Virus record (IMG/VR): IMGVR_UViG_3300021399_000131
Span: 26,387-90,386 of that record
Length of the DNA: 64,000 bases
DNA from: a virus
Lineage: Duplodnaviria; Caudoviricetes
Reading direction: 5' to 3' (one strand)
This document shows, piece after piece, positions 1,053-64,000 of the stretch; positions within the stretch are counted from its first letter, which is position 1; the number at the start of each line of letters is the position of its first letter. The notes under the pieces were generated by a model. That model saw only the letters and a list, made by a program, of their open reading frames with translations. It did no database searches and had not been told where the DNA came from. A program made the translations under genes and the position numbers.

Positions 1053-1940
1053 ATGGCAGAACAAGTTAAAAAAGCTAGAAGAGGAGTAAGTAATGCTACA
1101 CAAGCAACTTCTCAACTAAAATTTCATGAGAAAGATGCCGCACAAAATGGTTTATTTGTTGGACATCTTGAGTCGATTAGTGTTGAATGGAGCGTAAATG
1201 CTGATGGAAAGATGTTTACAGGATTGAAATGTCCTCGTCTTTCATTACATTTTACTAGTAATCATAGTAATCCTCAAGAACAACGTCATGTTTATCATAG
1301 TATAATGCCAGTTGAGAGTAATGTTGATACAATTCCTGGTGGTAAGGAAGAGTGGAAAGTAAACAATGTTCTTAATTGGATTAAATATGTACTTGACGTA
1401 TTTTATCTTAAAGGTCGTATGCTTACTGAAAAAGAGGAAGAAGCATTAACACTTCCTTTTGAAGATTTTGACGAAAATGGAGAATATGTTGCAGTAGAAC
1501 CTGAAGAGATTCTTAAAGGTTATGCTTTCATCTTTAATAACACAGTAGCAATGATGAATGGTACATTCAATGCTGCTGAAGGAGAAACTCCTAAGCCTTG
1601 TTATAAAGATGCAAATGGTAAACCAATAAATCTTTGGATGAAACTTCTGCGTCATAAGAAAGTTAAAGGTGAATGGAAGAATGTTGGTACTAATGGAGAT
1701 TTAGGTTTTGATAGTTTCATTGGAGCTGGTGTAATCGAGATTCAGAAACCTAACACTCCACCTGCTATTCTTCGTATTGACATTTCCAAAGAATCAATTA
1801 CTCCTAAAGAAATCAAGAAGACACCCACAGTTGGTGTTCCAATGGGAGGAGTAATGATGGGAGGTCCTGCTCCTGCAATGATGGGAATGAATAATGATAC
1901 GAGTGCATTTGCCGAGGCTGCTGAAGAAATGCCATTTTAA
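1053..1940 (+). CDS. ssb: Single-stranded DNA-binding protein (crAss-type)
   Basis: 295 aa with a Gly/Pro/Met-rich flexible tail ending in acidic AEEMPF, the typical SSB C-terminal tip; located upstream of primase. Confidence 0.7.
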   Translation: MAEQVKKARRGVSNATQATSQLKFHEKDAAQNGLFVGHLESISVEWSVNADGKMFTGLKCPRLSLHFTSNHSNPQEQRHVYHSIMPVESNVDTIPGGKEEWKVNNVLNWIKYVLDVFYLKGRMLTEKEEEALTLPFEDFDENGEYVAVEPEEILKGYAFIFNNTVAMMNGTFNAAEGETPKPCYKDANGKPINLWMKLLRHKKVKGEWKNVGTNGDLGFDSFIGAGVIEIQKPNTPPAILRIDISKESITPKEIKKTPTVGVPMGGVMMGGPAPAMMGMNNDTSAFAEAAEEMPF

Positions 1941-1960
1941 ACGTTATATTTAATCTTTTT

Positions 1961-1998
1961 AAGGGTGCTGCTCGTATGAGTGGTACCCTTTTTTTTTT
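1961..1998 (+). terminator. Intrinsic terminator
   Basis: Stem AAGGGTGCTGCTC-GTAT-GAGTGGTACCCTT followed by a long T run. Confidence 0.85.
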
Positions 1999-2001
1999 GA
2001 C

Positions 2002-3219
2002 ATGAAGAGGAATCCGAATACTAATCATCTAACTAAAGACTATATCGAATCAAAGATTAGTCAAGTTAGTATTATGTCTAAATATCTTGACATACCTGTT
2101 GAGGTAATCAATGATTGTATAGAACATAATAAGCTTATTCCTTCTGTCTTTCGAGATGATGGAAAACGTCCTAGTATGGGATTTGCTATAAATAAAAAAG
2201 GACGTTTGAAAGTTAGAGATTTTGGAGGTATTGGAATATTCTTCGATGTCTATGATACTGTCGCTTATGTATTAAGTTTTATGTATGATAGAATAATAGA
2301 ACCTAATAAAAAGTCGGATTTCTATTTTATTCTTAAACATATTGCTTATACATTTAGCGACATTGTTGATAATAAAGAAGTAGATGAAAATATAGACGTT
2401 GAACTTCAAAATGCTTTAAGGAAGGGAAAACAAGCTCAAGCAATTATTGAAATTGTACCTCGTAGTTGGAACCGACATGATAAAGAAATATGGAATAAAT
2501 GGGGTATAAGTCTTAATTATCTTAATACTCACTTTGTTATACCAGTAGAACAATATTATATTAATAGAACTGCTGAAAGTGACCCAAAGTATTATTATAA
2601 AGAAAAAGACCCTTGTTATGCGTATATGTTAGGACAAAATAGAAGGGGAATTTATCTTATTAAATTATATTTTCCTCTTCGTAATCGTTTTGTAGATTTA
2701 AAGTTTATAACTAATTGTAATGTTCTTGAAGGTTTACCTAATTTAGAATTAGATAATTATGATTATATTCTTATTACTAAATCTAGTAAAGATAGATTAT
2801 CTATAGGAAATCATATTGCCAACAATCCTTTCTATAGGGGGGCTAATAAGCTAAATGTTGGTATTATTAATTTACCTAGTGAAAATTATAGATTAAAACA
2901 GAATGAATATGATTATCTTGTAAATAAGTTAAAACCTGAAGGACAAATATTTAGTTTATTAGATTTTGATGCTACTGGACGAAGTGGTGCTAAATATTTA
3001 CAAGAAACCTATGATATTCCATATTTATTTATTACCCGTGGCGAATTTGGTTTAGTAAATTACAAATGTAAAGATTTTGCTGAACTTTATGAGCACTATT
3101 CTAAACAAGAAATTACTAATTTTGTAAATGAAACTTTAACTTATGCGACTATTAAATATCCCGTATGTAGTGAGAGTGGAAGTGAACAAGCCTTTTCAGA
3201 TTATAACTTGCCATACTGA
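2002..3219 (+). CDS. DNA primase (DnaG/TOPRIM type)
   Basis: N-terminal SVFRDD..PSMGF...VRDFGG region and C-terminal TOPRIM DxD (LLDFDATGRSGAKYL...KDFAE); replication-gene context. Confidence 0.8.
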   Translation: MKRNPNTNHLTKDYIESKISQVSIMSKYLDIPVEVINDCIEHNKLIPSVFRDDGKRPSMGFAINKKGRLKVRDFGGIGIFFDVYDTVAYVLSFMYDRIIEPNKKSDFYFILKHIAYTFSDIVDNKEVDENIDVELQNALRKGKQAQAIIEIVPRSWNRHDKEIWNKWGISLNYLNTHFVIPVEQYYINRTAESDPKYYYKEKDPCYAYMLGQNRRGIYLIKLYFPLRNRFVDLKFITNCNVLEGLPNLELDNYDYILITKSSKDRLSIGNHIANNPFYRGANKLNVGIINLPSENYRLKQNEYDYLVNKLKPEGQIFSLLDFDATGRSGAKYLQETYDIPYLFITRGEFGLVNYKCKDFAELYEHYSKQEITNFVNETLTYATIKYPVCSESGSEQAFSDYNLPY

Positions 3220-3601
3220 AAAAGGAAGAACTTGTGAAATAATCATGACCTATCTCACTGAAGAAGAAGAATATAAGATTGATAACGATGAAGTTGTTAA
3301 ACTTGAAAGAGGTTCAGTAACTTTTGAAGTTAGTAAATCTAAAATCTACGCTTACGGAGAAATTGATTTTCGTACAGGAAGCGAAGATTATGAAGTTCTT
3401 GCTGATATGACTTGGCTTAATCATTGTACTCTGAGAGGGGTGAATGTGTTAAGTAATTATAATTATAAACATAATACAGCAACTTCGGATATTCCTAGTG
3501 GTAGATACTATGACTCAATGAGTCCTGAAGTAGTTGCACAATTTAAACATGGACAACTAGGAAAACCGAAACGTACTGTTATATTCAAAAGAATAATATG
3601 A
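3143..3601 (+). CDS. Hypothetical protein
   Basis: 152-aa ORF overlapping the primase end and ATGA-coupled to the next gene; the start codon is uncertain. Confidence 0.65.
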   Translation: MRLLNIPYVVRVEVNKPFQIITCHTEKGRTCEIIMTYLTEEEEYKIDNDEVVKLERGSVTFEVSKSKIYAYGEIDFRTGSEDYEVLADMTWLNHCTLRGVNVLSNYNYKHNTATSDIPSGRYYDSMSPEVVAQFKHGQLGKPKRTVIFKRII

Positions 3602-4047
3602 CAGAATTAGATGATTATACTGTTTCTTTGGATAAAAGTGATATTCTGTTAATAGAACAAAATATAGCTAAAAATGGGGCTGAGCAAGAATTTCTTAATC
3701 AGCTCCATTTTTTAGATTGTTCTAAAGAATTAACTTCTACTAATGGTACTAAAATTAGAGCAATTCAAACTATAGATTATAGATACCAAGATCATGTTTC
3801 TCAAGCTGTATACATACTAAATAATTACCTCTCCCGTAGAGAAGATTTGTTTAATCAACTTGTAGAACTTCATAGAGCTAATCTAAAGTTTGAAGAAGAT
3901 AATCCTCCTGTATGGTACACAAAGAAGAAATGGACTAAAAAGAGGAAAGCTAATGTTGTTCCAAAAGAACCTAAGAAACGTATTACTAAAGAAAGTGTTA
4001 AACAAATAAGACTTAATAGTCTAGTATTAAAACTTAAACCAAAATGA
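3598..4047 (+). CDS. Hypothetical protein with basic C-terminus
   Basis: 149 aa, ATGA overlaps on both sides. Confidence 0.7.
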   Translation: MTELDDYTVSLDKSDILLIEQNIAKNGAEQEFLNQLHFLDCSKELTSTNGTKIRAIQTIDYRYQDHVSQAVYILNNYLSRREDLFNQLVELHRANLKFEEDNPPVWYTKKKWTKKRKANVVPKEPKKRITKESVKQIRLNSLVLKLKPK

Positions 4048-5249
4048 ATTTTCAAAGATTATTTAAACGAAATGCTCATGGTGAAATATTAGAATGGATG
4101 ATAAGTCGAAGAGATGATGGAACTCTAGATATTGTACATGGTGTATATGGTAAAAAACATATTACTGATGTAATTTTACCCACAAAAAAGAAAGTAGATG
4201 AGTTAGAATCTAGAGTACAAGAGAAACGTAAACAAGGTTATAAAGCATTAACTGATTTGTATGATAATGCACCAGAATCTTTAAAAAGCGTTAAAGATGA
4301 ATATAATTATCTTAATACTTATCTTCCTAAATATAACACTACTTCTGAAGGTTTTGTTCTTCCAATGTTAGCTAAAACATTAGAAGATAACAAACCTTTT
4401 GAAAGACTTGGTTCTATGTTAGGACAATGGAAAATTAATGGTCTTAGATGCATTGTTGGTGCTGAAACTACAGATGATATGTTTAAACCTATTAAGTTTA
4501 CGTATCATAGTAGAGAAGGTATTGATTGGACTGAAAATATGGCATGGTATGATGAAATTCTAATAGAACAAATAAATAAAGATTTACTGGAAAGTATGGT
4601 TTATTTAGATGTTTGTTTAGATGGTGAATTATATCTACCAGGATATTCAGTAAATGAAATTAATTCTTTTGTTAAAAATAGTAAACTTCCTCAACATTAT
4701 CTATTGCAATATTGGATTTATGACCTTTGTGATACTGATACTTCAGCATTATTCAGAGAATATAAGATAATTAAAGGATTCAAATGTGGAGTTTGTGATT
4801 TTATAACTAGTAAAGAACGTCATTTGAGTAATGAAAAACAATTAATAGTTTTACCTAGTCATGAAATAGCTGATATAACTAAAGCTATTCAATTTAGAGA
4901 TGTTTTTATAGGTCTAGGATTTGAAGGTCTTATAGTTCGTGACACTAACGCTGATTATCAGTTTGGTAAACGTAATAGCGCAATGTTCAAATATAAAAGG
5001 AAAGAAGATGGTTTGTTTGAAGTAGTAGATATTAAAGAAGATAAACGTGGTTTACCTATTTATACTCTTAAAAATGATATTAATGATGAATTATTTGAAT
5101 GTACTATTAATCTCCCTCAATCAGCTCAGAAAACTCAACTTAGTATGAAAGATCAACTTATTGGTAAAAAAGGCTTAGTTGAGTATCGTGAGCGTAGTGG
5201 TGTTAAAGAAGTTCCATTTCACGCAAAATTAATAAAAATATTCGTATGA
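4044..5249 (+). CDS. ATP-dependent DNA ligase with N-terminal extension
   Basis: Motif I QWKINGLRC, motif III LDGELY, IIIa YWIYD, IV FEGLIVR, V MFKYK, and a C-terminal OB-fold region. Confidence 0.9.
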   Translation: MNFQRLFKRNAHGEILEWMISRRDDGTLDIVHGVYGKKHITDVILPTKKKVDELESRVQEKRKQGYKALTDLYDNAPESLKSVKDEYNYLNTYLPKYNTTSEGFVLPMLAKTLEDNKPFERLGSMLGQWKINGLRCIVGAETTDDMFKPIKFTYHSREGIDWTENMAWYDEILIEQINKDLLESMVYLDVCLDGELYLPGYSVNEINSFVKNSKLPQHYLLQYWIYDLCDTDTSALFREYKIIKGFKCGVCDFITSKERHLSNEKQLIVLPSHEIADITKAIQFRDVFIGLGFEGLIVRDTNADYQFGKRNSAMFKYKRKEDGLFEVVDIKEDKRGLPIYTLKNDINDELFECTINLPQSAQKTQLSMKDQLIGKKGLVEYRERSGVKEVPFHAKLIKIFV

Positions 5250-5440
5250 ATGAAGAATGGTTATATATAATGGATTATGCTGATTGTAATATTTATAAAT
5301 TAAATATTACAGATATAGAAGATGACGATATTGAACGAATAATTGGACCTTATGGGTTTAATATTGACGAATGTGCTTATATGTATAGTGATTCTGAATT
5401 AGATAGTATTAAAGAATTAACAGAGGAGGACAAAGTATGA
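5246..5440 (+). CDS. Small acidic hypothetical protein
   Basis: 64 aa, ATGA-coupled to the ligase and to the next ORF. Confidence 0.65.
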   Translation: MNEEWLYIMDYADCNIYKLNITDIEDDDIERIIGPYGFNIDECAYMYSDSELDSIKELTEEDKV

Positions 5441-5700
5441 TTATATTTGCAATTTTAGGAATAATCTTTCTTGTAGCTATATTAGTAAATATTGTTGTTG
5501 CTATTATACAAGAAGTGTTATCGAAAGAAGACAATAGAGTTTATTGTATAAGTCATTGTTTTTATAAAGGCATTGATTGGATGATTATACCTACTATAGT
5601 TGTAGAGAAAGGTCATCTAGATAAGCATAGTGCTTTAAGTATTAGATTTCAATGGCTTTGCGTCAATTACGAATTGTTTTATCATATTAAAGAAGAATGA
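5437..5700 (+). CDS. Small membrane-anchored hypothetical protein
   Basis: N-terminal hydrophobic helix IIFAILGIIFLVAILVNIVVAII. Confidence 0.65.
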   Translation: MIIFAILGIIFLVAILVNIVVAIIQEVLSKEDNRVYCISHCFYKGIDWMIIPTIVVEKGHLDKHSALSIRFQWLCVNYELFYHIKEE

Positions 5701-5767
5701 ATATTGCATCTATAGATGATGAAGATGAAGATTCTATTGCTTATCGTATAGGTTAAATTAGTATTAT

Positions 5768-5818
5768 TAGCACCCCTATAGAAGAAATGTGATGAAATTC
5801 CATTCCTCTATAGGGGAT
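5768..5818. repeat. Inverted pair of CCCCTATAG motifs forming a hairpin (probable terminator or regulatory site)
   Basis: TAGCACCCCTATAGAAG at 5768-5784 and TTCCTCTATAGGGGAT at 5803-5818 are complementary. Confidence 0.75.
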
Positions 5819-5848
5819 TTATCATGCTAATTTGCTAAATTTCCTATC

Positions 5849-5921
5849 TCTCGTAACTTGTATTGCATTTTAGGTACAATATAGATAAGTCGTCCATCTG
5901 ACGAATTATCGTGTCTGAAAT
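5849..5921 (+). repeat. Dispersed ~73-bp intergenic element, copy A
   Basis: Aligns with 13752-13823 (TCTCGTAAC..TTGC.TTTTA..GATAA.TC.T.CATCT..AATTATCGTGTCT.AAAT). Confidence 0.75.
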
Positions 5922-6211: not shown

Positions 6212-6305
6212 GCCCTTCATTCCTTATGAAATTCGTGCTTATGATAAACAAAAACTAAGAGAGAGTATTAATAAAATGTTTAAAGCTAAAATGTTGTGTT
6301 GAATT

Positions 6306-6518
6306 ATGACAAAATATACTAGTACTAGATTTGGTAGGCTATATCAAATAAATAAGACATTTGTAGTAGCCGATAGCATTGAAGAAGCTATAGATTTATT
6401 TAAATTAGATACTGGTGGTGCAACAGAAATCTATGAAATATTTGCTATGAGCAAAATTCATCCTAATTGTTCGCAATTTGTTATTGTAGGAGATAGTGTT
6501 GCATCTGAAGATAAATAA
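6306..6518 (+). CDS. Hypothetical protein
   Basis: 70-aa ORF in a run of short co-oriented genes. Confidence 0.6.
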   Translation: MTKYTSTRFGRLYQINKTFVVADSIEEAIDLFKLDTGGATEIYEIFAMSKIHPNCSQFVIVGDSVASEDK

Positions 6519-6530
6519 ATTAAAAATATT

Positions 6531-6776
6531 ATGATTCATGAAAAATGTAAGAATTGTTCAGAATTAGTTATCCCTTACTTTGGTTTTCATAGAAAACCTA
6601 ATAGAGAACTATCAGAAAAATTGAAAATGGGAACGTGTAAGTGCAATGTAGATGAATTTGATAAAAAAGGTGAAGGGTATTATGGTTATTGTCATCCTGA
6701 TGAATGTAAGGGACCTGGACATAGATATTACTTAAATTATGATATGCTTAATGGTTGTATTAAATTTATTGACTAA
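6531..6776 (+). CDS. Cys-rich small protein, possibly metal-binding
   Basis: CKNC, CKC, CHPDEC and a terminal GC in 81 aa. Confidence 0.6.
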   Translation: MIHEKCKNCSELVIPYFGFHRKPNRELSEKLKMGTCKCNVDEFDKKGEGYYGYCHPDECKGPGHRYYLNYDMLNGCIKFID

Positions 6777-6795: not shown

Positions 6796-7173
6796 ATGAT
6801 AGAAGAAAGATATTGCTCTTATGAAGTTAGTGACCTTCTTAGAGAAAAAGGTTTTGATGAACCTTGCAGAAGTTATTATCTTGATAAACATGATTATCGC
6901 AAATGTGCTATGAGCCTTAATAAACATAATTTAATGGATTGGAATATCCTTAGACCAACACATCAAATGGCTATGGATTGGTTGAGAGAAATACATAAAC
7001 TGCACATTGAGATATATGCTAATGCCAGTGGTTATAAGTTTATTATCAGTAGGCCTGGTGGTGATGGCACTGACTTGGTGACTGATGCCAAAGGTCCCAA
7101 TGATGGTAATGCTTGGGATGATTATAAAGATGTAGTTGAGGCTGCATTGAAAGTTTGTTTAAATTTTGTTTAA
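6796..7173 (+). CDS. Bacteroidota phage hypothetical protein (MIEERYCSYEVSDLLREKGFDEPC...)
   Basis: Likely start at ATG 6796; contains PTHQMAMDWLRE..LHIEI, a pattern I recall from Bacteroidales phage hypotheticals. Confidence 0.65.
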   Translation: MIEERYCSYEVSDLLREKGFDEPCRSYYLDKHDYRKCAMSLNKHNLMDWNILRPTHQMAMDWLREIHKLHIEIYANASGYKFIISRPGGDGTDLVTDAKGPNDGNAWDDYKDVVEAALKVCLNFV

Positions 7174-7193
7174 CTAATTTAATAAAATAAATT

Positions 7194-7664
7194 ATGGAAA
7201 AAGAAGTAAAAATTGTTCCACCCGAAGGTTATGAGGTGGATAGAGAGAACTCAACATTTGATTGTATTAAGTTTAAACTTATTCAATCTAAAAGATGGAG
7301 AGATAGCAATCCTCGTGTAAACGGGTGGTATTTACGTGATGATAAGATACTAGGTGCGTATGTTGGAGTTACTTGGAAAAATAATTTTGATATATTTGCC
7401 ACTGAGAAACAAGCAAAATCTGCACTTGCTATGGCTCAGATTAGTCAGATTATAGCTAATGATGAAAGATTTGGAGGTGTTGTGACTGATGAAGAGTGGA
7501 AAGATGACACCTTAAAATATGTTCTTGTTCGTAAGAACGAAGAAATATCTACTGAGGCACGATTATACACTTACACTTTTCTTGCCTTCCACACAGAAGA
7601 ACAACGTGATTTGTTCTTAAAAGAGAATGAAGATTTAGTTAAAGATTATTTAATGATTGATTAA
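7194..7664 (+). CDS. Bacteroidota phage hypothetical protein
   Basis: 156 aa; FATEKQAKSALAMAQISQ and FLAFHTEEQRDLFLKEN patterns; AT-rich translation initiation region. Confidence 0.7.
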   Translation: MEKEVKIVPPEGYEVDRENSTFDCIKFKLIQSKRWRDSNPRVNGWYLRDDKILGAYVGVTWKNNFDIFATEKQAKSALAMAQISQIIANDERFGGVVTDEEWKDDTLKYVLVRKNEEISTEARLYTYTFLAFHTEEQRDLFLKENEDLVKDYLMID

Positions 7665-7958: not shown

Positions 7959-8960
7959 ATGAAAGCAAGAATAAAGAAAACAGGTGAAATAGTAAATGTT
8001 GCTGAATGGGCTACCCTGGAATTAGAAATGTGTGATTCTTATGGGGACCCTATATGTATGGCACCAGAAGATATAGAACTCATTCAAGAACAAACTGAGG
8101 ATGAGCATTGGAAAGATGTTCGTGAAAGAGCGGCTATTGCTGCTATGCAAGGAATGCTTTGTTCTCCATATATTAAAAATATTGTGGATAACTTTTCATT
8201 GAAAGATGTCGCAAAATGGGCTGTTATACAAGCTGATGTTCTTATTGAAGAACTTGAAAAGCCTCAAGGTAAAGCAGCACTCAAGGTAATTAATGAAGAA
8301 AATGTTGATAATGCAAATAAGATTGAGCCAAAGTTTAAGGTTAAGTATACTGGTAGTTGCTATAATGTTCTTGAGATAAGAAAAATTAACGGAGTAACAT
8401 TCTATGGAATAGAAGATGAGCCTAACCATATTGATTATGTTCTTCCTGATAATTGCGAAATAATTAGTGGTTATGGTGTAAAAGAAAATGGTTCTCCTTA
8501 TCCTACTAAACCTATTGTGTTTTCTGAGCAGAAGCCTGATAATAAGGTTAAACCAAAGTTCAACGAAGGTGATTGGATTGTTTGGCAAGATAAATGCTAT
8601 AAAGTCAACTATAATGGTTGTGGATATGAATTGGTTGATCAAAATGGTTTAAGTACATCATTAGAATATGGAACTATTGATGAAAATGCACACCTTTGGA
8701 CTATTGCATATGCCAAGGATGGTGATGTGCTTGTAGATGTATATGGAAATATAGGTATATATAAGAAACGCGATTATTTTGATTGGACATCTTATTGTTC
8801 CCTTGGATTTCATGGAGGTTTTCAGAATTTTAAAGTGGAACATGAAAATGATAAACTTCATCCAGCTACCAAAGAACAGCGTGACACTCTCTTTGCGAAG
8901 ATGAAAGAAGCAGGATATGAATGGGATAATGACAAGAAAGAGCCGAAGAAAATTAAATAA
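7959..8960 (+). CDS. Mosaic hypothetical protein with repeated PKF.x.GDWI-type modules
   Basis: Likely start at ATG 7959; modules IEPKFKV, VKPKFNEGDWIV, WTIAYAKDGDVL, HPATKEQRDTLFAKMKEAGYEWD. Confidence 0.7.
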   Translation: MKARIKKTGEIVNVAEWATLELEMCDSYGDPICMAPEDIELIQEQTEDEHWKDVRERAAIAAMQGMLCSPYIKNIVDNFSLKDVAKWAVIQADVLIEELEKPQGKAALKVINEENVDNANKIEPKFKVKYTGSCYNVLEIRKINGVTFYGIEDEPNHIDYVLPDNCEIISGYGVKENGSPYPTKPIVFSEQKPDNKVKPKFNEGDWIVWQDKCYKVNYNGCGYELVDQNGLSTSLEYGTIDENAHLWTIAYAKDGDVLVDVYGNIGIYKKRDYFDWTSYCSLGFHGGFQNFKVEHENDKLHPATKEQRDTLFAKMKEAGYEWDNDKKEPKKIK

Positions 8961-9134
8961 AAATTTAAAGGAGGTGATTATATTATACATCAAGGAACTG
9001 GTAACATTTATCAAGTTATTTCTTGTATAGATAATCAATATCAACTTAAATACGAAGATACTTATACTATTCAGAAATGTGATGATGTTGATAGACATGC
9101 AAGATTGTTGGATGTTCCTAAAGATGTTAGATAA
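8961..9134 (+). pseudogene. In-frame orphan module after a stop (KFKGGDYIIHQGTGNIYQV...)
   Basis: The same frame continues 57 codons past TAA 8958-8960 with a further KF..GDYI module and no start codon. Confidence 0.6.
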
Positions 9135-9185
9135 AAAGGATGCTGAAAATAAAGTAACAAAGTCAATTATAAACGAACGATTTAA

Positions 9186-9926
9186 ATGATAATTATTATG
9201 AACCTATTTAAGAAATTATTTAGATGGTTGTTTTGGAGAAAAAAGAAAATCTCCAAACCTGTAGTTGAAGAACCTGTTTATAAACTTATTCAAAATGTTA
9301 AATGGCTTACTTGTCCTAAAGGACCTTCTAGTTGGAATCATGCTGCTGGATTACCTGTAGCTATAGCTGATGATTTCATAAGACTACGTTGTGAAGCAGT
9401 AAATGAAGTAGATTATTTCACTGCTGCTATCAAAACTCTAGTAGGTTATGCTGACGGTAAGTTTGAATGTGAAGCCAGGTTCAATTCTGGTAAAGGTACT
9501 TGGCCTGCTATTTGGTGTAGTTGTATGAATGGTGGAAAGGATTACTCCACTTATTATGAAGTTGATTTAAGTGAATATTACGAAACTCGTGATAATACTG
9601 AAACGACTTATCATTGTCCTGAATCTATGCAAGACAGTAGTAAACATTTTTATAAGAATGTTAAAACTAAGATTAGTCCTAAAGAATGGACTAAGTTCGC
9701 TATGACATGGGATGATAAAGCTATCAAAGTTTATATTAATGACAAGAATGTTATGACTATAAATAATGATAGCAATCCTAAACATTTTCCTGTTGATCCT
9801 AATGATAGAATATTTAGATTTATTCTTAGTATGCAGTATAATAATAAATACTTATCTAAAATTGATTTAACTGAACTTCCTCTTTGGATGGATGTTCGTA
9901 ATATTAAAATTTATGAAAAAGTGTAG
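9186..9926 (+). CDS. Glycoside hydrolase family 16 (beta-jelly roll) protein
   Basis: GKFECEARFNSGKGTWPAIW followed by YYEVDLSEY (catalytic E-x-D-x-x-E, 9558-9575), FAMTWDDKAIKVYIND and MDVRNIKIYE. Confidence 0.85.
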   Translation: MIIIMNLFKKLFRWLFWRKKKISKPVVEEPVYKLIQNVKWLTCPKGPSSWNHAAGLPVAIADDFIRLRCEAVNEVDYFTAAIKTLVGYADGKFECEARFNSGKGTWPAIWCSCMNGGKDYSTYYEVDLSEYYETRDNTETTYHCPESMQDSSKHFYKNVKTKISPKEWTKFAMTWDDKAIKVYINDKNVMTINNDSNPKHFPVDPNDRIFRFILSMQYNNKYLSKIDLTELPLWMDVRNIKIYEKV

Positions 9927-52447: not shown

Positions 52448-52479
52448 CAAATATACAAAAAGGTTTTCACATAACCAAA
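52448..52479 (-). promoter_or_regulatory. Bacteroidota promoter pointing into the ring/muzzle/cargo operon
   Basis: Minus strand: TTTG (52476-52479), 20-bp spacer, TATATTTG (52448-52455). Confidence 0.7.
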
Positions 52480-52599: not shown

Positions 52600-53010
52600 T
52601 TAATTACATTTATCGAAAACAACACAACTAACAGCATCAAACATTTGTTTAACAATATATCCTATAGTATATGCAGCATCTTCTCCTTTGTCAGGAATAC
52701 GATAATAACTAAATATACCTTGTTTGATATGCTCTGCTTCATGTACTATAGAAGACAAATATTCAGCTTTAGATGTGTGCCTATTAAATATAACAACACT
52801 ACATCTGTGTTTTAGAGAATTTATAGTAACACCATAAGCATCATGAGAGAGATGATATTTGATATTATCAATTTCCTCTACAGGGGTGCTAACATCTAAT
52901 AATTCTCTACGTACAATATTAAAATAGTCATAGTCTATATTATAATAAACTATGACTGTCCAATAATGTTTTATATTAAAAACTTGCTTAATCATATCAT
53001 ATCGTCCCAT
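52600..53010 (-). CDS. Cassette gene 6: small HExxH metallopeptidase-like protein
   Basis: SIVHEAEHIKQ followed by GEDAAY (third-ligand Glu position of minimal zincins). Confidence 0.7.
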   Translation of the reverse strand: MGRYDMIKQVFNIKHYWTVIVYYNIDYDYFNIVRRELLDVSTPVEEIDNIKYHLSHDAYGVTINSLKHRCSVVIFNRHTSKAEYLSSIVHEAEHIKQGIFSYYRIPDKGEDAAYTIGYIVKQMFDAVSCVVFDKCN

Positions 53011-53408
53011 TCAATAGGATTATCCATAAATACAGTATCAGCATAAAAACGATTAAACACAAAACCTTCTTCAGCGTCTACATCATCTAATACGTCTTTT
53101 ACATATTTTATAAGTTGGTCTTCACCTCTAATAGAAGAACCAAGAAAATCAGCTTTACACATATTAGCAACATAAACTGCATCATAAAGTTTATTACGTT
53201 TAATCTCAACTCTATATGTAGCCATAAGATTATCAACATCTTGTTTAGTATATGGAACAATCTTTTCTATTCGTCCATTAGGAGTTTTATGTTCCATTCT
53301 ACTTACAGCTTCATCACAAAGTTTTTTATTAAAGTGACAACCATAATTATTGATATAGATTTTCATTCCCTCAGGAATTTCATCATAACTACCAGTTCTT
53401 CTATTCAT
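52992..53408 (-). CDS. Cassette gene 5: conserved helical hypothetical protein
   Basis: YGCHFNKKLCDEAVSRM...YDAVYVANMCKADFLGSSI...NPIEWDDMI; recalled from Bacteroidales prophage clusters. Confidence 0.7.
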   Translation of the reverse strand: MNRRTGSYDEIPEGMKIYINNYGCHFNKKLCDEAVSRMEHKTPNGRIEKIVPYTKQDVDNLMATYRVEIKRNKLYDAVYVANMCKADFLGSSIRGEDQLIKYVKDVLDDVDAEEGFVFNRFYADTVFMDNPIEWDDMI

Positions 53409-53424
53409 AGCATTTTAATTTAAA

Positions 53425-53469
53425 GGTAGATTGATTACACCCCCTGTAGAAGGAATGTATCAATCTACC
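53425..53469. repeat. Intra-cassette hairpin with CCCCTGTAG in its apex
   Basis: GGTAGATTGAT (53425-53435) / ATCAATCTACC (53459-53469) perfect stem enclosing CCCCTGTAGAAGG. Confidence 0.75.
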
Positions 53470-53477
53470 ACAATTAA

Positions 53478-53699
53478 TTACCTACCCATTCTATATCTTG
53501 AACGATATGAACCTCCACGATATGAAGTATCACCTCTATACATAGGCTCTTCGTAATCATAATCAGATTCATCACCTTCCATTTCTTCCATCTTTTCTTC
53601 AAGACATTCGACTACTTCTTCAATGTCTTTCTTCATTCTTTTAACTTTACGAAGAAGATGCTTTGCTTCTTCAGCTGATTTATATCTAACAATAACCAT
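53478..53699 (-). CDS. Cassette gene 4: small coiled-coil protein with acidic and Arg/Gly/Tyr-rich tail
   Basis: ...EEMEGDESDYDYEEPMYRGDTSYRGGSYRSRYRMGR. Confidence 0.7.
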   Translation of the reverse strand: MVIVRYKSAEEAKHLLRKVKRMKKDIEEVVECLEEKMEEMEGDESDYDYEEPMYRGDTSYRGGSYRSRYRMGR

Positions 53700-53703
53700 A
53701 ATA

Positions 53704-54210
53704 TTATTTTTCTTTAGTTTCAGGTTTAAGAGCGTCTATTAATTGTTTTAATTGTCCACTTAGAGTATTCACTTGATTTTGTAGTTGACTAATAGTATCA
53801 TCTCTTTTAGCTTCCGCTGCAAGTTTAGGATTAACTGTCACAAGAATGTTTTTGCAATCTTCTGCTCTAAGTTTATGTCTATCATAACTTGCTATTATGG
53901 ATTCACTCTCTTGTAATGCATTAGTTAAATAATTAACAAGTGCATCTTTACTATCCATTAATACAAAACCATTATTACTAAAGTCTGCTACTGTAAGACT
54001 ACTAGGTATTTGAGTGAACTCTTTATCTTCTCCTTCTACTTTAACAGATATATCTACTGCATTATTTGTTGGATACATTGCCATAGGATTATATCTAGCT
54101 TGTCTTGCTATAGAAGGAGTAACTTTAATTACTTGACCAACAAGTAATTTATATCTATCTCTCACATCAAGAATGTAGAGATCTTGACCAGCACTTAAAT
54201 TTAGAAACAT
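53704..54210 (-). CDS. Cassette gene 3: beta-rich N-domain plus C-terminal coiled coil
   Basis: MFLNLSAGQDLYILD...IPSSLTVADF...LVTVNPKLAAEAKRDDTISQLQNQVNTLSGQL. Confidence 0.7.
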   Translation of the reverse strand: MFLNLSAGQDLYILDVRDRYKLLVGQVIKVTPSIARQARYNPMAMYPTNNAVDISVKVEGEDKEFTQIPSSLTVADFSNNGFVLMDSKDALVNYLTNALQESESIIASYDRHKLRAEDCKNILVTVNPKLAAEAKRDDTISQLQNQVNTLSGQLKQLIDALKPETKEK

Positions 54211-54229
54211 AGTTATACAATTTAATTAA

Positions 54230-54568
54230 TTATAATATCTGCATCTGATTGGCATTTTTATCATACCATATAAGATATACACCAGGACCAACTAAATCAG
54301 TACCTACAGCCTCAGTACCACCTTTAACAGTTAGAGGTTGAGTAAAGCTATTACTACTAAATATAATTGGAAGTGCGTCTCCTCCTGTAGGTATAGCAAC
54401 ATTTAATCTAAATGCAACAACACCATTAGCACTCAACGCTCTAAATACTCTGTTGGGAAGAGTTATAACAACGTTAGTATCAGTTACTGTAACTGCAGAA
54501 CTTTCAATCATAGGAATACCATTCCTATTAGCAAAGTTAAACGGATAATTAGTAGTAGCACCAAACAT
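54230..54568 (-). CDS. Cassette gene 2: small all-beta protein
   Basis: 112 aa of alternating beta strands ending GPGVYLIWYDKNANQMQIL. Confidence 0.7.
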   Translation of the reverse strand: MFGATTNYPFNFANRNGIPMIESSAVTVTDTNVVITLPNRVFRALSANGVVAFRLNVAIPTGGDALPIIFSSNSFTQPLTVKGGTEAVGTDLVGPGVYLIWYDKNANQMQIL

Positions 54569-54586
54569 AATGATAAGATGTTTTAA

Positions 54587-55603
54587 TTAGTTCCAAAAAT
54601 TAGTTTGTCCCCAAGCACCATAGTTATAACCAACATACGGAGTTGCATTAGCAGCTACAAGATTAGGCCATTGAACAGGTACAGTATTAGGTTGTTTAGC
54701 TGCAATAGCATCAATCTTATCATCTAAAGCATGAAAAGCTGCGTTGAATTGCAGAGTCTGCTTATCATTACTAATTTGATTCCTCAGCTGAGTAATAATA
54801 TCTCCCTGAGTATCAATCTTATTCTGAAGCTCACGTTCTTTCAAATCACAGAACTCTTTTGTAATCATTGTATTCTGATTAGCAATAGCATTTAAGATGC
54901 TAGTTGTATCACGTTCTGCTTGATTTTGAAGTGTATTAGTTTGCTGACAAATAGCAAGATTCTGGTCACCCTTAGCTTCTGCAAGCTGTAAACGAACATT
55001 AGCATCATGCTGAGCAAGTTGGAATTGAGCAGCATTAGCATTACGAGCAGCTTCAGCTTGTAATGTTGCAGTCTGATTAGCAGTTGCAAGACGATTCTCA
55101 CAGCAGCACTCACAAAGCTGACGACCAAGAGTAGCATTACCATTCTGAACTTCATTAATAACCTGAAGAGCAGTAAGACCAAAGCGTTCCCCGATAGAAG
55201 AAAGCTTAGCATTTGCATCAGCAATACCAGCCTTAACAAAGTCAACATTAGTATTTGTAATCTGAGCAAGCTGTGCAATAGCATCAGCACGACCATTAAG
55301 AGCCTGGAGAATCAAATCACGACCTTGGATGTTAGTAAGTTGATTAGAAATAAAGCCAGTACCTGCAACATCAGCAGCTGCAGCAACTCCATTTCCACCC
55401 CAACCTCCAAATCCTCCCCAACCATTTCCAAACATACTAAGGAAAGGAAGAATAAAAGGATACATAAACATCATCCACATCGGATTGTTCATACCACCGC
55501 CCCAACCATTATTAGCATTAAGGGCAGCAATAGTAGCATAATCAGCAATGTTACCACGTCCAGATTGTGAATCTGGAAAAACATAAACACCTTCTTGTGC
55601 CAT
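54587..55603 (-). CDS. Cassette gene 1: Gly/Trp/Met-rich hydrophobic N-terminus, long coiled coil, CECCCEN Cys cluster
   Basis: NNGWGGGMNNPMWMMFMYPFILPFLSMFGNGWGGFGGWGG; QLCECCCENRL; KERELQNKID...ITQLRNQISNDKQT; distinct, highly-expressed-type codon usage. Confidence 0.8.
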   Translation of the reverse strand: MAQEGVYVFPDSQSGRGNIADYATIAALNANNGWGGGMNNPMWMMFMYPFILPFLSMFGNGWGGFGGWGGNGVAAAADVAGTGFISNQLTNIQGRDLILQALNGRADAIAQLAQITNTNVDFVKAGIADANAKLSSIGERFGLTALQVINEVQNGNATLGRQLCECCCENRLATANQTATLQAEAARNANAAQFQLAQHDANVRLQLAEAKGDQNLAICQQTNTLQNQAERDTTSILNAIANQNTMITKEFCDLKERELQNKIDTQGDIITQLRNQISNDKQTLQFNAAFHALDDKIDAIAAKQPNTVPVQWPNLVAANATPYVGYNYGAWGQTNFWN

Positions 55604-55635
55604 AGTTTCATTGATTTGAATTTAATTAATAATAA

Positions 55636-55703
55636 GTTTAACTTCATCTCTAAATACGTATTTAAGATATTGCAAAGTTAAACACAAAAAAGCTATATTC
55701 AAA
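55636..55703 (-). promoter_or_regulatory. Bacteroidota promoter of the cassette with overlapping palindromic operator
   Basis: Minus strand TTTG (55700-55703), 19-bp spacer, TAACTTTG (55673-55680); perfect palindrome TAAATACGTATTTA (55651-55664) inside the IR GTTTAACTT (55636-55644) / AAGTTAAAC (55675-55683). Confidence 0.8.
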
Positions 55704-55715
55704 TCAATGCTAAAA

Positions 55716-55752
55716 TAAAACAAAAATAGCTAACTGATAAACAGTTAGCTAT
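55716..55752 (-). terminator. Intrinsic terminator after the HTH gene
   Basis: ATAGCTAACTG-ATAAA-CAGTTAGCTAT (55726-55752) followed on the minus strand by TTTTGTTTT. Confidence 0.8.
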
Positions 55753-56020
55753 CAAAAGGATTACTAATTTCGTCTTTATACCACACTAATTCATTAAAAC
55801 CTTTTCGTTTCTTGCCTTTATGTATAAAACCATTTCTAATCCAATTATCAAATGTAGCTCTAGAAACATTTAAATAATCACAAGCTTGTTCTTTACTTAA
55901 AGGTTCATGAGCAAGAATAGTAAATAATTGAGAAGATTCTTCTTTAGTTAGTTCACATTTATCTTCTTCAATTTTAGTTGCTACTTCTCTTAATAGTTTT
56001 ATTATTAACTTCTTTAGCAT
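55745..56020 (-). CDS. Helix-turn-helix DNA-binding protein (excisionase/MerR-like HTH)
   Basis: LSKEQACDYLNVSRATFDNWIRNGFIHKG....LVWYKDEI. Confidence 0.85.
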   Translation of the reverse strand: MLKKLIIKLLREVATKIEEDKCELTKEESSQLFTILAHEPLSKEQACDYLNVSRATFDNWIRNGFIHKGKKRKGFNELVWYKDEISNPFDS

Positions 56021-56393
56021 TGTGTTTTAGTTTTAAATAAACAGTTAAAAATAAAGCGACACCAAATAAAATACTATTAATAGTTAGATATAGTTTATTA
56101 GTTGGCATAATATAAAATTTGTAATCTACCCAAGCAAATATTTCACTTATAGTAATATAATGTAGAAACATTCTATGATAGTTACAAAAACCAAAAGCAT
56201 AAGAAGATACATAAAAGAATATAATAGGGAGTACTGACATACCCCCTATTAAACTAAAGAGTTCAATATTAATACCTATAGTAGTTAGAACTACATTTAT
56301 AAAATAAAGAACAGCAATAAGAACTGGTATTCTTTTTAATAAATATAATTCTAACTTGTATAAGTATTTATTTAGTTTTACCTCCTTCACCAT
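55974..56393 (-). CDS. Multi-pass membrane protein
   Basis: Likely start at ATG 56393 (MVKEVKLNKYLYKLELYLLK); about four hydrophobic helices; FGFCNYHRMFLHYI motif. Confidence 0.75.
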   Translation of the reverse strand: MVKEVKLNKYLYKLELYLLKRIPVLIAVLYFINVVLTTIGINIELFSLIGGMSVLPIIFFYVSSYAFGFCNYHRMFLHYITISEIFAWVDYKFYIMPTNKLYLTINSILFGVALFLTVYLKLKHNAKEVNNKTIKRSSN

Positions 56394-56487
56394 AACGTCT
56401 TCTATTTCCATTATATCCAGCTGGAGGGGACATACGATAATCACTCTTTTTAGAAGTTGATTTAGTTGTTGATTTAGTTTTAGCCAT
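56368..56487 (-). CDS. Unannotated 39-aa basic peptide MAKTKSTTKSTSKKSDYRMSPPAGYNGNRRRYGEGGKTK
   Basis: ATG at 56487 in an AT-rich context right after the upstream stop; TAA at 56368-56370; fills the gap between annotated ORFs. Confidence 0.65.
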   Translation of the reverse strand: MAKTKSTTKSTSKKSDYRMSPPAGYNGNRRRYGEGGKTK

Positions 56488-56688: not shown

Positions 56689-57213
56689 TTATTCTGCTGG
56701 AAAAAAAGGATTATCAGGTAGAAACTTTCTATAAAAGTCTTCTATAGTAAGACCTGCAAGCTCAAATGCTTCTTGTTGACGACCTCTAAAAGACCCATAA
56801 TATGATAAACACATCTGGATTAATAGAGTTGCACCCATAACACCTGTCCAAAATAAATTAAATGTTGGAGTAGTTTGATTACCTATATCCATAAAACAAG
56901 TACTTATAAGATTAACAGCTTTTGTATTTACTGGACCTAAGTCAGTGCCTCCTGGCATGGAAGTAGTGTCTACTACAAGTTTAATTAATTTACAATCATA
57001 TACTGCTTTAATCATTTTAGCCATAGTTTCCGTAGATGCACTAAAATTCTTATTTGTTAAAGAATCTTTGGATTGTACAGCACCATCTCCAGGTATTACA
57101 TCAAATTCTATTGTGACTATATCACTATCTCCACCACCACTACCTTCTAACACTCTGTCCAAAGTTTTACCTTTATGAACAACTTCACTTGAAAAAATTT
57201 TATTATGTTTCAT
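56689..57213 (-). CDS. Tail-fibre-associated variable protein, paralog 1
   Basis: N-terminal KGKTLDRVLEGSGGG shared with the neighbouring ORF; the remainder is unique. Confidence 0.6.
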   Translation of the reverse strand: MKHNKIFSSEVVHKGKTLDRVLEGSGGGDSDIVTIEFDVIPGDGAVQSKDSLTNKNFSASTETMAKMIKAVYDCKLIKLVVDTTSMPGGTDLGPVNTKAVNLISTCFMDIGNQTTPTFNLFWTGVMGATLLIQMCLSYYGSFRGRQQEAFELAGLTIEDFYRKFLPDNPFFPAE

Positions 57214-57237
57214 AAGATTAAAAATTAGATTTATTTA

Positions 57238-57642
57238 TTAAAGTAAAAACGTACTTTGATATATAATTTCTATTGGTCCAGATGAAGGATTGTTGAATAA
57301 AAATCTTATTTCCACATTATCATAGGAACCATCCATTTCAACTAAAGTAAATTGTAATCCATAAATATGATAAACTGTTTCGTCAGTTATAATTTTAGCC
57401 ACAATATAATTAGTTTTACCATTCGTTATATAGTCTACTACTCCATCTTTTACATCGTCCCAATTAGAAAGATCGAACGTAGCATATCCATTTTCAGTGG
57501 AATAAGAACGGTTTGTAATATTTAATTCTATTGTTTCTACAGGTTCATCAGAACCTCTACCTTTTCCAATTACTTTATCTAATGTTTTACCATCTTTTGT
57601 AAGAATTTGGTCAGCACGACCTAAAATAGGATTTGTTTTCAT
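57238..57642 (-). CDS. Tail-fibre-associated variable protein, paralog 2
   Basis: N-terminal DGKTLDKVIGKGRGS then V.TIE; beta-rich remainder. Confidence 0.6.
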   Translation of the reverse strand: MKTNPILGRADQILTKDGKTLDKVIGKGRGSDEPVETIELNITNRSYSTENGYATFDLSNWDDVKDGVVDYITNGKTNYIVAKIITDETVYHIYGLQFTLVEMDGSYDNVEIRFLFNNPSSGPIEIIYQSTFLL

Positions 57643-57661
57643 AATTGTTTTTTTTAAGTTA

Positions 57662-57862
57662 TTAATCGTTATAGTAATACGTCAAACTGTTTGTTGTAGT
57701 ATCATATTGCAACCACCAATCTCCACTAGTAATAACATTATTAGAAGCTAATTGTGTAAAATCCCAACTATTAACATTCTAAAAGCTAAGTCCATCTTGC
57801 TTATAAAAACTAAAATATTTATTAGGATTTACATAACCAACATCAACACATTCTTGTTTCAT
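57662..57862 (-). pseudogene. 66-codon ORF interrupted by one in-frame TAG
   Basis: MKQECVDVGYVNPNKYFSFYKQDGLSF*NVNSWDFTQLASNNVITSGDWWLQYDTTTNSLTYYYND; TAG at 57779-57781; fills an otherwise empty gap. Confidence 0.5.
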
Positions 57863-57905
57863 AGCTTCACTAGACCTTAAACTTTGTGTACTAGGTACAA
57901 AGCTT

Positions 57906-58274
57906 TTAAGATTCTTTATTAGCTTTAGAACATTTTTTGATAGCTTTGTTATGTAATTGATTTATATCATCTTTAACATAATTCAAACCAAATTTTTCAC
58001 ATATAGGTCTAAATATCCAAGACCATGTTACTGGAGCAAGAATAGCACTATTAAGTATCAATCGATTATCTACACCAAAGATAGAATAAACAATACTAAC
58101 AACAATTATACTAATTATAAGAATTATTCTTTTTCTCCAAGTAGAAATCTTAAATTTAAATTTGCTTTCAGAAAGCCATTTAATAATAAGATATGTCAGA
58201 ACATTTACAACGATACAAAAAGCAAAATCAAAACTAGATAATGTAGTTTCAATGGCACTAGTTATATATTCCAT
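57906..58274 (-). CDS. Holin-like membrane protein
   Basis: Two to three hydrophobic helices and a basic C-terminal tail in 122 aa; adjacent to tail fibre genes. Confidence 0.55.
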   Translation of the reverse strand: MEYITSAIETTLSSFDFAFCIVVNVLTYLIIKWLSESKFKFKISTWRKRIILIISIIVVSIVYSIFGVDNRLILNSAILAPVTWSWIFRPICEKFGLNYVKDDINQLHNKAIKKCSKANKES

Positions 58275-63795: not shown

Positions 63796-63999
63796 TTAGA
63801 GTACGCACTTGAGGTGCATCATCTTTGTAGCATTATTCACTTGAAGACCATAAGTATTCTTAATCTCATACCTAGACATATCAATCTCAGTAGCAATACT
63901 ATTAGTCGGAACACCACCCCAAGATGGAGGAATAGGAGTAAGACCTTTAAGCACACCACTAAGATAAACTTGTCCCTTCAGACCAACCTTACGAATATT
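63796..63999 (-). CDS. Major capsid protein, C-terminal fragment
   Basis: Frame reads NIRKVGLKGQVYLSGVLKGLTPIPPSWGGVPTNSIATEIDMSRYEIKNTYGLQVNNATKMMHLKCVL*; resembles the crAss MCP C-terminus and sits at the head of the structural operon. Confidence 0.75.
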   Translation of the reverse strand, partial: NIRKVGLKGQVYLSGVLKGLTPIPPSWGGVPTNSIATEIDMSRYEIKNTYGLQVNNATKMMHLKCVL

Positions 64000-64000
64000 A

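Follow-up and report, generated by a model that had tools for sequence, protein, structure and literature searches.

What a compact block of six small genes might do among the structural genes of a crAss-like phage is the question raised by a 64,000-nucleotide stretch of DNA (hereafter the window), which covers positions 26,387 to 90,386 of the IMG/VR virus record IMGVR_UViG_3300021399_000131, i.e. 64 kb out of a 90,386-bp phage genome. Six tightly packed minus-strand open reading frames (ORFs), here called A to F and occupying 52600–55703 together with their promoter, have the lengths (338, 112, 168, 73, 138 and 136 aa) reported in an initial annotation, which had been made from the sequence alone and had read them as a moron-like unit inserted in the tail-gene region. 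Morons are independent promoter–gene–terminator units of lambdoid and other phages. On the analysis presented here, these genes are best read as an autonomous operon of accessory genes, strictly speaking a moron, common to many tailed phages. As to its function, it is tentatively proposed, with a probability of about 0.3, that the cassette products assemble in large amounts at the cytoplasmic membrane and there tune lysis or egress.

An independent transcription unit

The cassette is an independent transcription unit with its own promoter, operator-like dyad and terminators (all signals given here lie on the minus strand). The promoter at 55673–55703 matches the Bacteroidota consensus exactly (TTTG-N19-TAACTTTG), and a perfect 14-bp palindrome, TAAATACGTATTTA, is found just downstream of its −7 box at 55651–55664, as an operator-like dyad. 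An intrinsic terminator with a 12-bp stem and a T-run (55725–55753; −15.8 kcal/mol, z −6.9) closes the upstream operon, and a further exact consensus match beyond F, TTTG-N20-TATATTTG at 52448–52479, restarts the operon encoding ring, IHF-like, muzzle and cargo proteins. Between D and E, a stem-loop (53425–53469; −29.5 kcal/mol, z −6.0) is followed by a U-rich tract. All these signals had been proposed in the initial annotation and were recovered here. Consensus promoter matches number six in the window, against 2.2 expected, and a scan of the late strand from 13.9 to 64 kb for intergenic TAnnTTTG boxes returned only the two promoters and one TATTTTTG within the terminator T-tract (55721–55728). 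No clear terminator was found 3′ of F in the window.

The same arrangement is seen in relatives: at 42 of 53 loci A is preceded within 220 nt by a TAnnTTTG box, mostly at a distance of 55–98 nt, with dyads of differing sequence at the same position after the −7 box. As RNA, the window palindrome is weak (z −0.3), as are the leader palindromes when folded as hairpins (mean z −0.7), and they are therefore read as DNA dyads. The earlier suggestion that the cassette is host-transcribed holds in so far as its promoter is of the host-type consensus, but this is not a distinctive property, since the same promoter type drives other late operons, e.g. at genome position 2635 before the scaffold-like and major capsid protein (MCP) genes; transcription by the host polymerase is thus normal for the late genes of this phage and no mark of a foreign cassette.

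Recurrence and loss among phages of Bacteroidota

Profile searches combined with synteny analysis showed that the A-B-C-D-E-F unit recurs in unrelated phage backbones. The gene order is kept in more than 50 fetched loci (20 from IMG/VR found with A, 24 anchored on the ring protein R2 and 14 from metagenome-assembled genomes (MAGs)), so that the six genes do co-occur as a unit elsewhere, and they are carried, among others, by phages of four crassvirus lineages, by the cultured Bacteroides siphovirus C3_41T2LP and by a Bacteroidales contig with an integrase. In the 20 loci found with A, the order is constant and the flanks differ. Nearly all of the 24 R2-anchored loci have the cassette at the same place, with A proteins that are only 23–63% identical, which indicates that the cassette is old in this clade; the insertion is therefore not a recent one, and such variants as were observed are cases of loss. 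In protein and DNA comparisons, the nearest kin of the window genome are Intestiviridae/Obtuvirinae phages, e.g. cr271_1 and Wotdevirus, and one IMG/VR contig (L005) is 99% identical to the window over the cassette. Elsewhere among the crassviruses, A, B and a third gene directly follow the holin and LysB-like genes of cr109_1 (Suoliviridae), and in cr116_1 (Steigviridae; it belongs to the subfamily of crAss001) the order is holin, L,D-carboxypeptidase, helix-turn-helix (HTH) gene, cassette and then scaffold-like and MCP genes. No trace of the cassette was detected in crAss001 with A, B, C, E and F profiles, structural region included. In L020, L022, L023 and L024 from IMG/VR, and in L026 (cr109_1, 7120–7298), in-frame stops interrupt cassette genes, whereas the gene annotated in cr109_1 continues through them; some crassvirus lineages probably recode stop codons.

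The genes immediately upstream of A recur with it. In most Bacteroidota contexts A is preceded by a protein with two to four transmembrane (TM) segments and then by an excisionase-type HTH protein, the HTH gene preceding A in cr116_1, in the siphovirus C3_41T2LP and in most loci. In the window, these are TM156 (55974–56444, minus strand; about four TM segments), whose gene overlaps that of HTH91 (55745–56020, minus strand), an excisionase/AlpA-type HTH protein and candidate regulator of the cassette promoter. HTH91 matched PHROG excisionase/HTH families and, below its cut-off, the NCBIfam excisionase-family domain; a weak match to the mad1 HTH was the sole PADLOC match at the cassette. TM122 (57906–58274, minus strand), a small holin-like membrane protein with about three TM segments and without family match in library searches of window proteins, also travels with the cassette, being upstream in some relatives and directly after E/F in cr271_1 and Wotdevirus. 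Since a TM protein, the HTH gene and the promoter with its dyad travel with A, the mobile unit exceeds six genes and carries its own candidate regulator.

The cassette is lost or reduced in close relatives and is hence accessory. In a 90.5-kb contig (L048), the fibre gene, TM122 and a TM156 remnant are followed directly by R2, in an 87.6-kb contig (L041) only E and TM122 remain, and a third (L045) is without C and F. In bovine-gut contigs from two runs of one study, window position 52745 is joined to 55723 (the shorter arms of the joint measure 139 and 180 nt), and the 2,977 bp missing comprise A to E and two thirds of F; the 3′ end of F is left, which identifies the event as a deletion. The 25-nt filler at this joint was not found in IMG/VR. 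A possible second joint in two bovine-gut runs (50391/57861), weak with 25 nt on its shorter side, leaves out 7,469 bp between R1 and a point just past TM122.

The moron-like nature of the unit is thus upheld by its own promoter and terminators, by its presence or absence among collinear relatives and by its occurrence in crass-type, siphovirus and T5-like backbones. As for morons in general, its flanks carry terminators, its neighbours vary, and it is dispensable and horizontally moved. Typical morons consist of one or two genes, whereas this unit has six to nine; it is also ancient, occurs almost throughout this crassvirus clade, and seems to be strongly expressed in lytic growth and not from a prophage.

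Copies in phages of Gram-positive hosts and in coliphage T5

Six cultured phages of Clostridium perfringens and the Butyrivibrio virus Ceridwen were found to encode homologues of A, with shared hallmarks that include a short aromatic core between Gly-rich runs, a CCCE[NST]R motif, a second conserved Cys and a Pro/Cys- or Gly/aromatic-rich tail. The homologue in the C. perfringens phage XP41-N3 matches crassvirus A proteins directly by tblastn, and the gene adjoining it matches the B profile (hhalign probability 73%, E 3e-5). Of the four Firmicutes-type copies examined, three (L068, L069 and Ceridwen) continue with D-like proteins rich in RG/SY. The cassette lies downstream of endolysin/holin genes in Ceridwen and XP41-N3, between annotated predicted terminators in the former and before Gam/Erf/SSB genes in the latter; in L069 it precedes the terminase gene. 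Homology between B and a neighbouring Ceridwen gene was unsupported, and an SH3-plus-coil-looking gene upstream of A in Ceridwen, considered as a candidate C, resembles it by eye only and was unsupported by hhalign. A papain-like Cys…His protein of 119–125 aa accompanies the A-B-D core in Ceridwen (L073, 7740–8117) and in L069 (5384–5743); the L069 copy belongs to PHROG 3754, and in both phages the protein occupies the place of the zincin in Bacteroidota copies. A literature search on the C. perfringens phages returned one genome announcement and nothing on these genes.

A distant A homologue is T5.077 of coliphage T5 (hhalign probability 95.9%, E 6e-9, 159 columns), which has a VxVF motif, a Gly-rich hydrophobic segment and a QLAECCCE motif, and is conserved in 223 phage records, mostly T5-like. 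Like the cassette, the operon T5.077–T5.078–T5.079 combines A homology and a CCC motif with its own signals, the annotated promoter P12 (TTGACA upstream of T5.077) and an annotated efficient terminator. Unlike the cassette, it consists of three genes only, without C, E or F; T5.078 is Q/M-rich and gave no alignment with B, and T5.079 is a Cys/Pro-rich peptide. T5.080 (L075, 11792–12739, minus strand), according to its annotation a lipoprotein with one transmembrane domain, is convergent with T5.077–079 and shares their bidirectional terminator.

A probable high-output core and a separable add-on

Although the initial annotation regarded the six proteins as parts of one machine, the cassette is composed of an A–D core, of seemingly high output, and an E–F add-on. 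The share of CGT among Arg codons is 0.82 in A, compared with 0.75 in MCP, 0.67 in the auxiliary capsid-like gene, 0.58 in the gp33-like gene and 0–0.33 in most others, and the GC content of A (0.40) is close to that of MCP (0.39). In two RNA-Seq runs of the source sample, approximately 100%-identical contigs cover A, B, C, D and capsid genes, although such assembled contigs cannot rank expression and may include DNA carry-over. Together, the MCP-like Arg codons and the RNA contigs suggest that A–D are highly expressed. No contig from these runs was found on E, F or the tail genes, with 44–52 kb uncovered; the gap over E–F is a hint only, because contigs cannot rank expression.

The division coincides with the D–E stem-loop. 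In 9 of 10 relatives, the D–E spacer contains a GC-rich stem-loop with a U-rich tail (z ≤ −2.6), the sequences of which differ, showing that it is the structure that is kept; it is probably an attenuator or the 3′ end of an abundant A–D transcript. E persists alone in L041, and F is absent from many copies. Small F-like zincins (phage proteins of 110–160 aa in a structure search of BFVD) are also frequent in phages without A, so that a dedicated processing protease, as had been proposed, is unproven. In cr116_1 (L072), two F-like zincins flank the A–D core, one upstream of A (6267–6614, AHECLH) and one at the end (8847–9242), and no E gene is present. A perfect 13-bp stem-loop followed by AUUUUA (52926–52957, minus strand; z −5.1) lies in the 5′ part of the F ORF just past the E stop, and may act as a second attenuator.

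The lead protein A

Protein A (54587–55603, minus strand; 338 aa) is composed, from N- to C-terminus, of an acidic tail, a short aromatic/Gly-rich hydrophobic core, a Q/N/A-rich coiled-coil rod and a Gly/aromatic tail. The Gly/Trp-rich hydrophobic segment, CECCC motif and coiled coil noted previously are all present, and the rod carries the invariant CxCCC and MITKEFCDLKERELQNKI while containing only 14% charged residues. Among 90 diverse homologues, the hydrophobic core begins at about residue 37–56; its hydropathy over 13 residues averages 2.0, and hardly any charges flank it. The proposal of a membrane-associated lead protein is in line with these properties, A being membrane-active as predicted from its sequence. 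A is a member of PHROG 16490, and its family comprises 914 clusters at 50% identity, all of about 280–340 aa and unfused, or more than 5,800 clusters at 90% identity among the candidates scored. In two bovine-gut runs, contig depth rises 5–40 fold over the conserved A core (54673–55339, MITKEFCDLKE region), and this core is common to many phage lineages within one sample.

The best PDB profile matches of A were influenza HA2 chains, at E 0.02–0.03 and thus below significance, in which the last part of the fusion peptide, together with helix A, is aligned with the Gly/aromatic segment and first helix of protein A. This sub-threshold similarity probably accounts for the ‘spike protein/glycoprotein’ labels that some A homologues carry in GenBank, RefSeq or database records, others being labelled ‘outer capsid protein/viral fiber’. 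A search of the ESM Atlas with A matched unnamed or ‘spike’ clusters only, and comparison of A with the LysB-like gp27 of crAss001 by hhalign gave a probability below 1%.

The partner proteins B to F

No signal peptide or lipobox is visible in the sequences of A to F. Searches of Pfam, PHROGs and NCBIfam with the six proteins returned only DUF7841, for E, and function-less PHROGs; no significant match came from PDB profile searches with A, B, C, E and F, and comparison of the F and C models with PDB structures (Foldseek, VIA-align) gave nothing above Z 6.7.

B (54230–54568, minus strand; 112 aa) is small and probably beta-rich, many of its homologues start with MxCCN, and its profile shows a weak match to a cyanophage cement protein (E 0.76). 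C (53704–54210, minus strand; 168 aa) was modelled by AlphaFold2 (pLDDT 78) as a small N-terminal SH3/Tudor/KOW-like barrel followed by two long helices predicted to form a coiled coil; structural matches of the barrel are generic (Z 5–6.7), and its sequence matched coiled-coil proteins only. Neither B nor C aligned with the head fibre protein gp29 of crAss001 (hhalign probability below 1%). D (53478–53699, minus strand; 73 aa) has the acidic helix and RG/Y-rich tail described for it.

E (52992–53408, minus strand; 138 aa), the gene of which overlaps F, belongs to Pfam DUF7841 (PF25223; E 1e-27, 97 bits against a gathering cut-off of 25.2), an assignment that was confirmed on the genome. It is the most conserved and most persistent cassette gene and has an Asp-rich invariant motif. 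DUF7841 was found in none of 14 control genomes, and E had no match in the ESM Atlas. Five fused forms of E were found, and look like gene-call artefacts.

F (52600–53010, minus strand; 136 aa) shows the features of the HExxH peptidase claimed for it, with HEAEH and a conserved Glu 16 residues later, H90, E91, H94 and E110 being invariant in the alignment. Its AlphaFold2 model (pLDDT 91) places helices 81–103 and 110–135 after four strands, and the best BFVD match was a PolyVal metallopeptidase (E 2e-7, TM 0.75). F is thus predicted by its modelled fold to be a minimal zincin, a small phage metallopeptidase of the PolyVal/SprT/IrrE-like type, and the F homologue of C3_41T2LP is annotated as a PolyVal-type metallopeptidase. 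In contrast to the MPTase-PolyVal zincins (PF18818), with which it shares HExxH, the downstream Glu and the fold, F of the window matches no Pfam model, one homologue reaching PF18818 at E 0.029, and it stands alone, outside any polyvalent protein. No match of F to PDB structures exceeded Z 6.1. That E or F is the endolysin was considered and is unlikely, since cr116_1 encodes an L,D-carboxypeptidase of its own next to the cassette.

Proposed role and alternative explanations

A tuning of lysis or egress is favoured because the cassette is a strong, regulated and portable unit beside holin/endolysin genes and accompanied by small multi-TM proteins. It is proposed that the host-type promoter and the dyad, both observed, drive a high-output A–D transcript, that the dyad is probably read by the travelling HTH protein, and that the transcript would end at the conserved hairpin, with E–F, observed to be separable, presumably expressed at a lower level. 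A may then insert its short aromatic, Gly-flanked segment into the cytoplasmic membrane of the host and form a cysteine-clustered coiled-coil rod, on which B, C and D, being without signal peptides, could assemble. In the second half of infection, this membrane assembly would act together with the neighbouring holin-like proteins. The class III holin T of phage T4, with its antiholins, offers a parallel, in that T also consists of a short N-tail, a single membrane segment and then a large C-terminal domain, and shares with the cassette the proximity of lysis genes and the presence of accessory regulators. No sequence or profile similarity between T and A is known; A differs from T in being a long coiled coil with a CCC cluster, and cassette-free relatives keep other holin-like proteins.

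Several observations weigh against this reading. The cassette-free relatives still keep the TM proteins, MCP-like expression exceeds the expectation for a lysis regulator (and the RNA evidence for it has the limits given above), and five soluble partners are unusual for lysis cassettes. A has no positive-inside signal and the hydropathy of the window's own segment is marginal. The cassette follows RecT and Holliday-junction resolvase genes in C3_41T2LP, a cultured Bacteroides uniformis siphovirus, and does so likewise in L061, an integrase-bearing Bacteroidales MAG contig that is probably a prophage, and its homologous operon in T5 sits among early-region tRNA and replication genes. No paper was found that mentions DUF7841 or T5.077, nor any experiment on a cassette member.

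The positions after recombination genes, together with those before Gam/Erf/SSB in XP41-N3 and before the terminase in L069 and the early-region copy of T5, would fit an organiser, anchored in the membrane, of the replication, recombination or packaging of phage DNA, comparable to p16.7 and p1 of phi29, in which A would tether a cytoplasmic coiled coil while polymerase or nucleic acid would be bound by the C barrel, which resembles KOW/Tudor/EF-P-type barrels, and by the RG-rich D tail; the lack of signal peptides on all partners is also consistent with it. However, the cassette of three crassvirus families has fibre and lysis genes as neighbours and is distant from those for replication, matches of the barrel are generic (Z <7) and no DNA-binding family was matched, so that such a role is considered improbable. 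Superinfection exclusion or membrane protection, where abundant A would coat or enter the cytoplasmic membrane and block DNA entry or damage by later phages, would make the cassette a fitness moron, as befits an independent, dispensable unit that moves between backbones, is led by a protein membrane-active by sequence, is carried by the probable prophage L061 and has its T5 copy in the early region. Yet known exclusion systems are usually single genes, whereas the cassette retains four to six genes in a common order; its place in crassviruses is among late genes with capsid-like codon bias, and none of the PADLOC anti-phage defence models matched A to F. This explanation is therefore possible but rather doubtful.

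An accessory virion appendage, in the manner of head fibres or Hoc/Soc, with A and C as a cysteine-stapled fibre, B as decoration or cement and D to F as assembly aids, would account for capsid-like expression signals in a dispensable and variable unit, and is in agreement with the fibrous predictions, the ‘outer capsid protein/viral fiber’ labels, the weak cement-protein match of B and the adjoining fibre genes in this clade. The core of A is, however, hydrophobic and aromatic, and the module, which has its own HTH gene and operator, is carried by crass-type podovirus-like, siphovirus and T5-like phages with unrelated capsids and tails; in siphoviruses and T5 its location is away from the structural modules. 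The module is also missing from crAss001, the virion structure of which has been solved, with an atlas of modelled virion proteins (PMC10172136). This absence, together with the failure of A to align with gp27 and of B and C with gp29, argues against ordinary virion components; a virion role is unlikely, and the appendage described here correspondingly hard to sustain. The lysis-gene neighbourhood, the conserved cysteines, a rod long enough for the periplasm and the weak HA2-like similarity could suggest a spanin-like fusion of inner and outer membranes, with A spanning the periplasm, disulfide-linked like Rz/Rz1, and its C-tail reaching the outer membrane. Unlike the spanins lambda Rz/Rz1 and T1 gp11, which share with A the coiled coil, conserved cysteines and adjoining lysis genes, the A family is present in cultured phages of the Gram-positive hosts C. 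perfringens and Butyrivibrio fibrisolvens, including XP41-N3 with its adjoining B homologue, and an outer-membrane spanin role is rejected on this account; the lack of a lipoprotein partner and of export signals on the other partners, and the existence of cassette-free close relatives, leave it with hardly any credibility. A more speculative version of a membrane function, to which a low probability is given, is that the A family is a fusogen-like membrane remodeller, in which a fusion-peptide-like aromatic/Gly segment, a heptad rod and a Cys clamp would, with B to D, form an abundant assembly that bends or fuses membranes at egress. The alignment to HA2, a class I fusion protein, is sub-threshold, and the hydrophobic segment of A, in contrast to that of HA2, is internal, about 40 residues from the N-terminus.

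Genomic setting

The identities of the late-strand genes were read by gene order and length against annotated crAss001, its cryo-EM atlas (PMC10172136) and cr271_1. A first block encodes gp33-like, ring and auxiliary capsid proteins, tail hub A and B and fibre proteins; a second consists of TM122, three small genes, TM156 and HTH91, and then cassette A–F; and the genes 3′ of the cassette encode ring protein R2, an IHF-like protein, ring protein R1 (P22 gp4-like), muzzle, cargo and the giant RNA polymerase. A homologue of crAss001 gp30 was not found in the window genome, and a search for an endolysin among neighbouring ORFs found LysM domains on a 932-aa protein only.

Between TM122 and p63, the window and L005 differ by a swap of about 3 kb, perhaps an exchange of receptor-binding genes, L005 containing a 1,213-aa ORF (within 1452–5919) where the window (56689–57905) has only p134 and p174. 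The major capsid gene is seemingly split by the ends of the linear record (window 63800–64000 and genome start 1–1300); circular joining of the ends gave only a 431-aa ORF, MCP-like by codon bias, which is a candidate MCP only.

Significance

The A family is found in Crassvirales, the phage order with the greatest abundance in the human gut, and also in rumen phages. To date, apart from one DUF, no curated family covers the cassette, and no function or paper was found for any of its members. A is made at seemingly capsid-like levels and yet can be lost, and a high-output, portable membrane module of this kind points to a common, undescribed phage–host step at the cell membrane. If the fusogen-like reading were true, this would be an unrecognised and widespread step of the lytic cycle, from crassviruses to Clostridium phages and T5. 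The presence of homologues in tractable T5, in CPD1-like C. perfringens phages and in the B. uniformis phage C3_41T2LP makes the function of the cassette directly testable.

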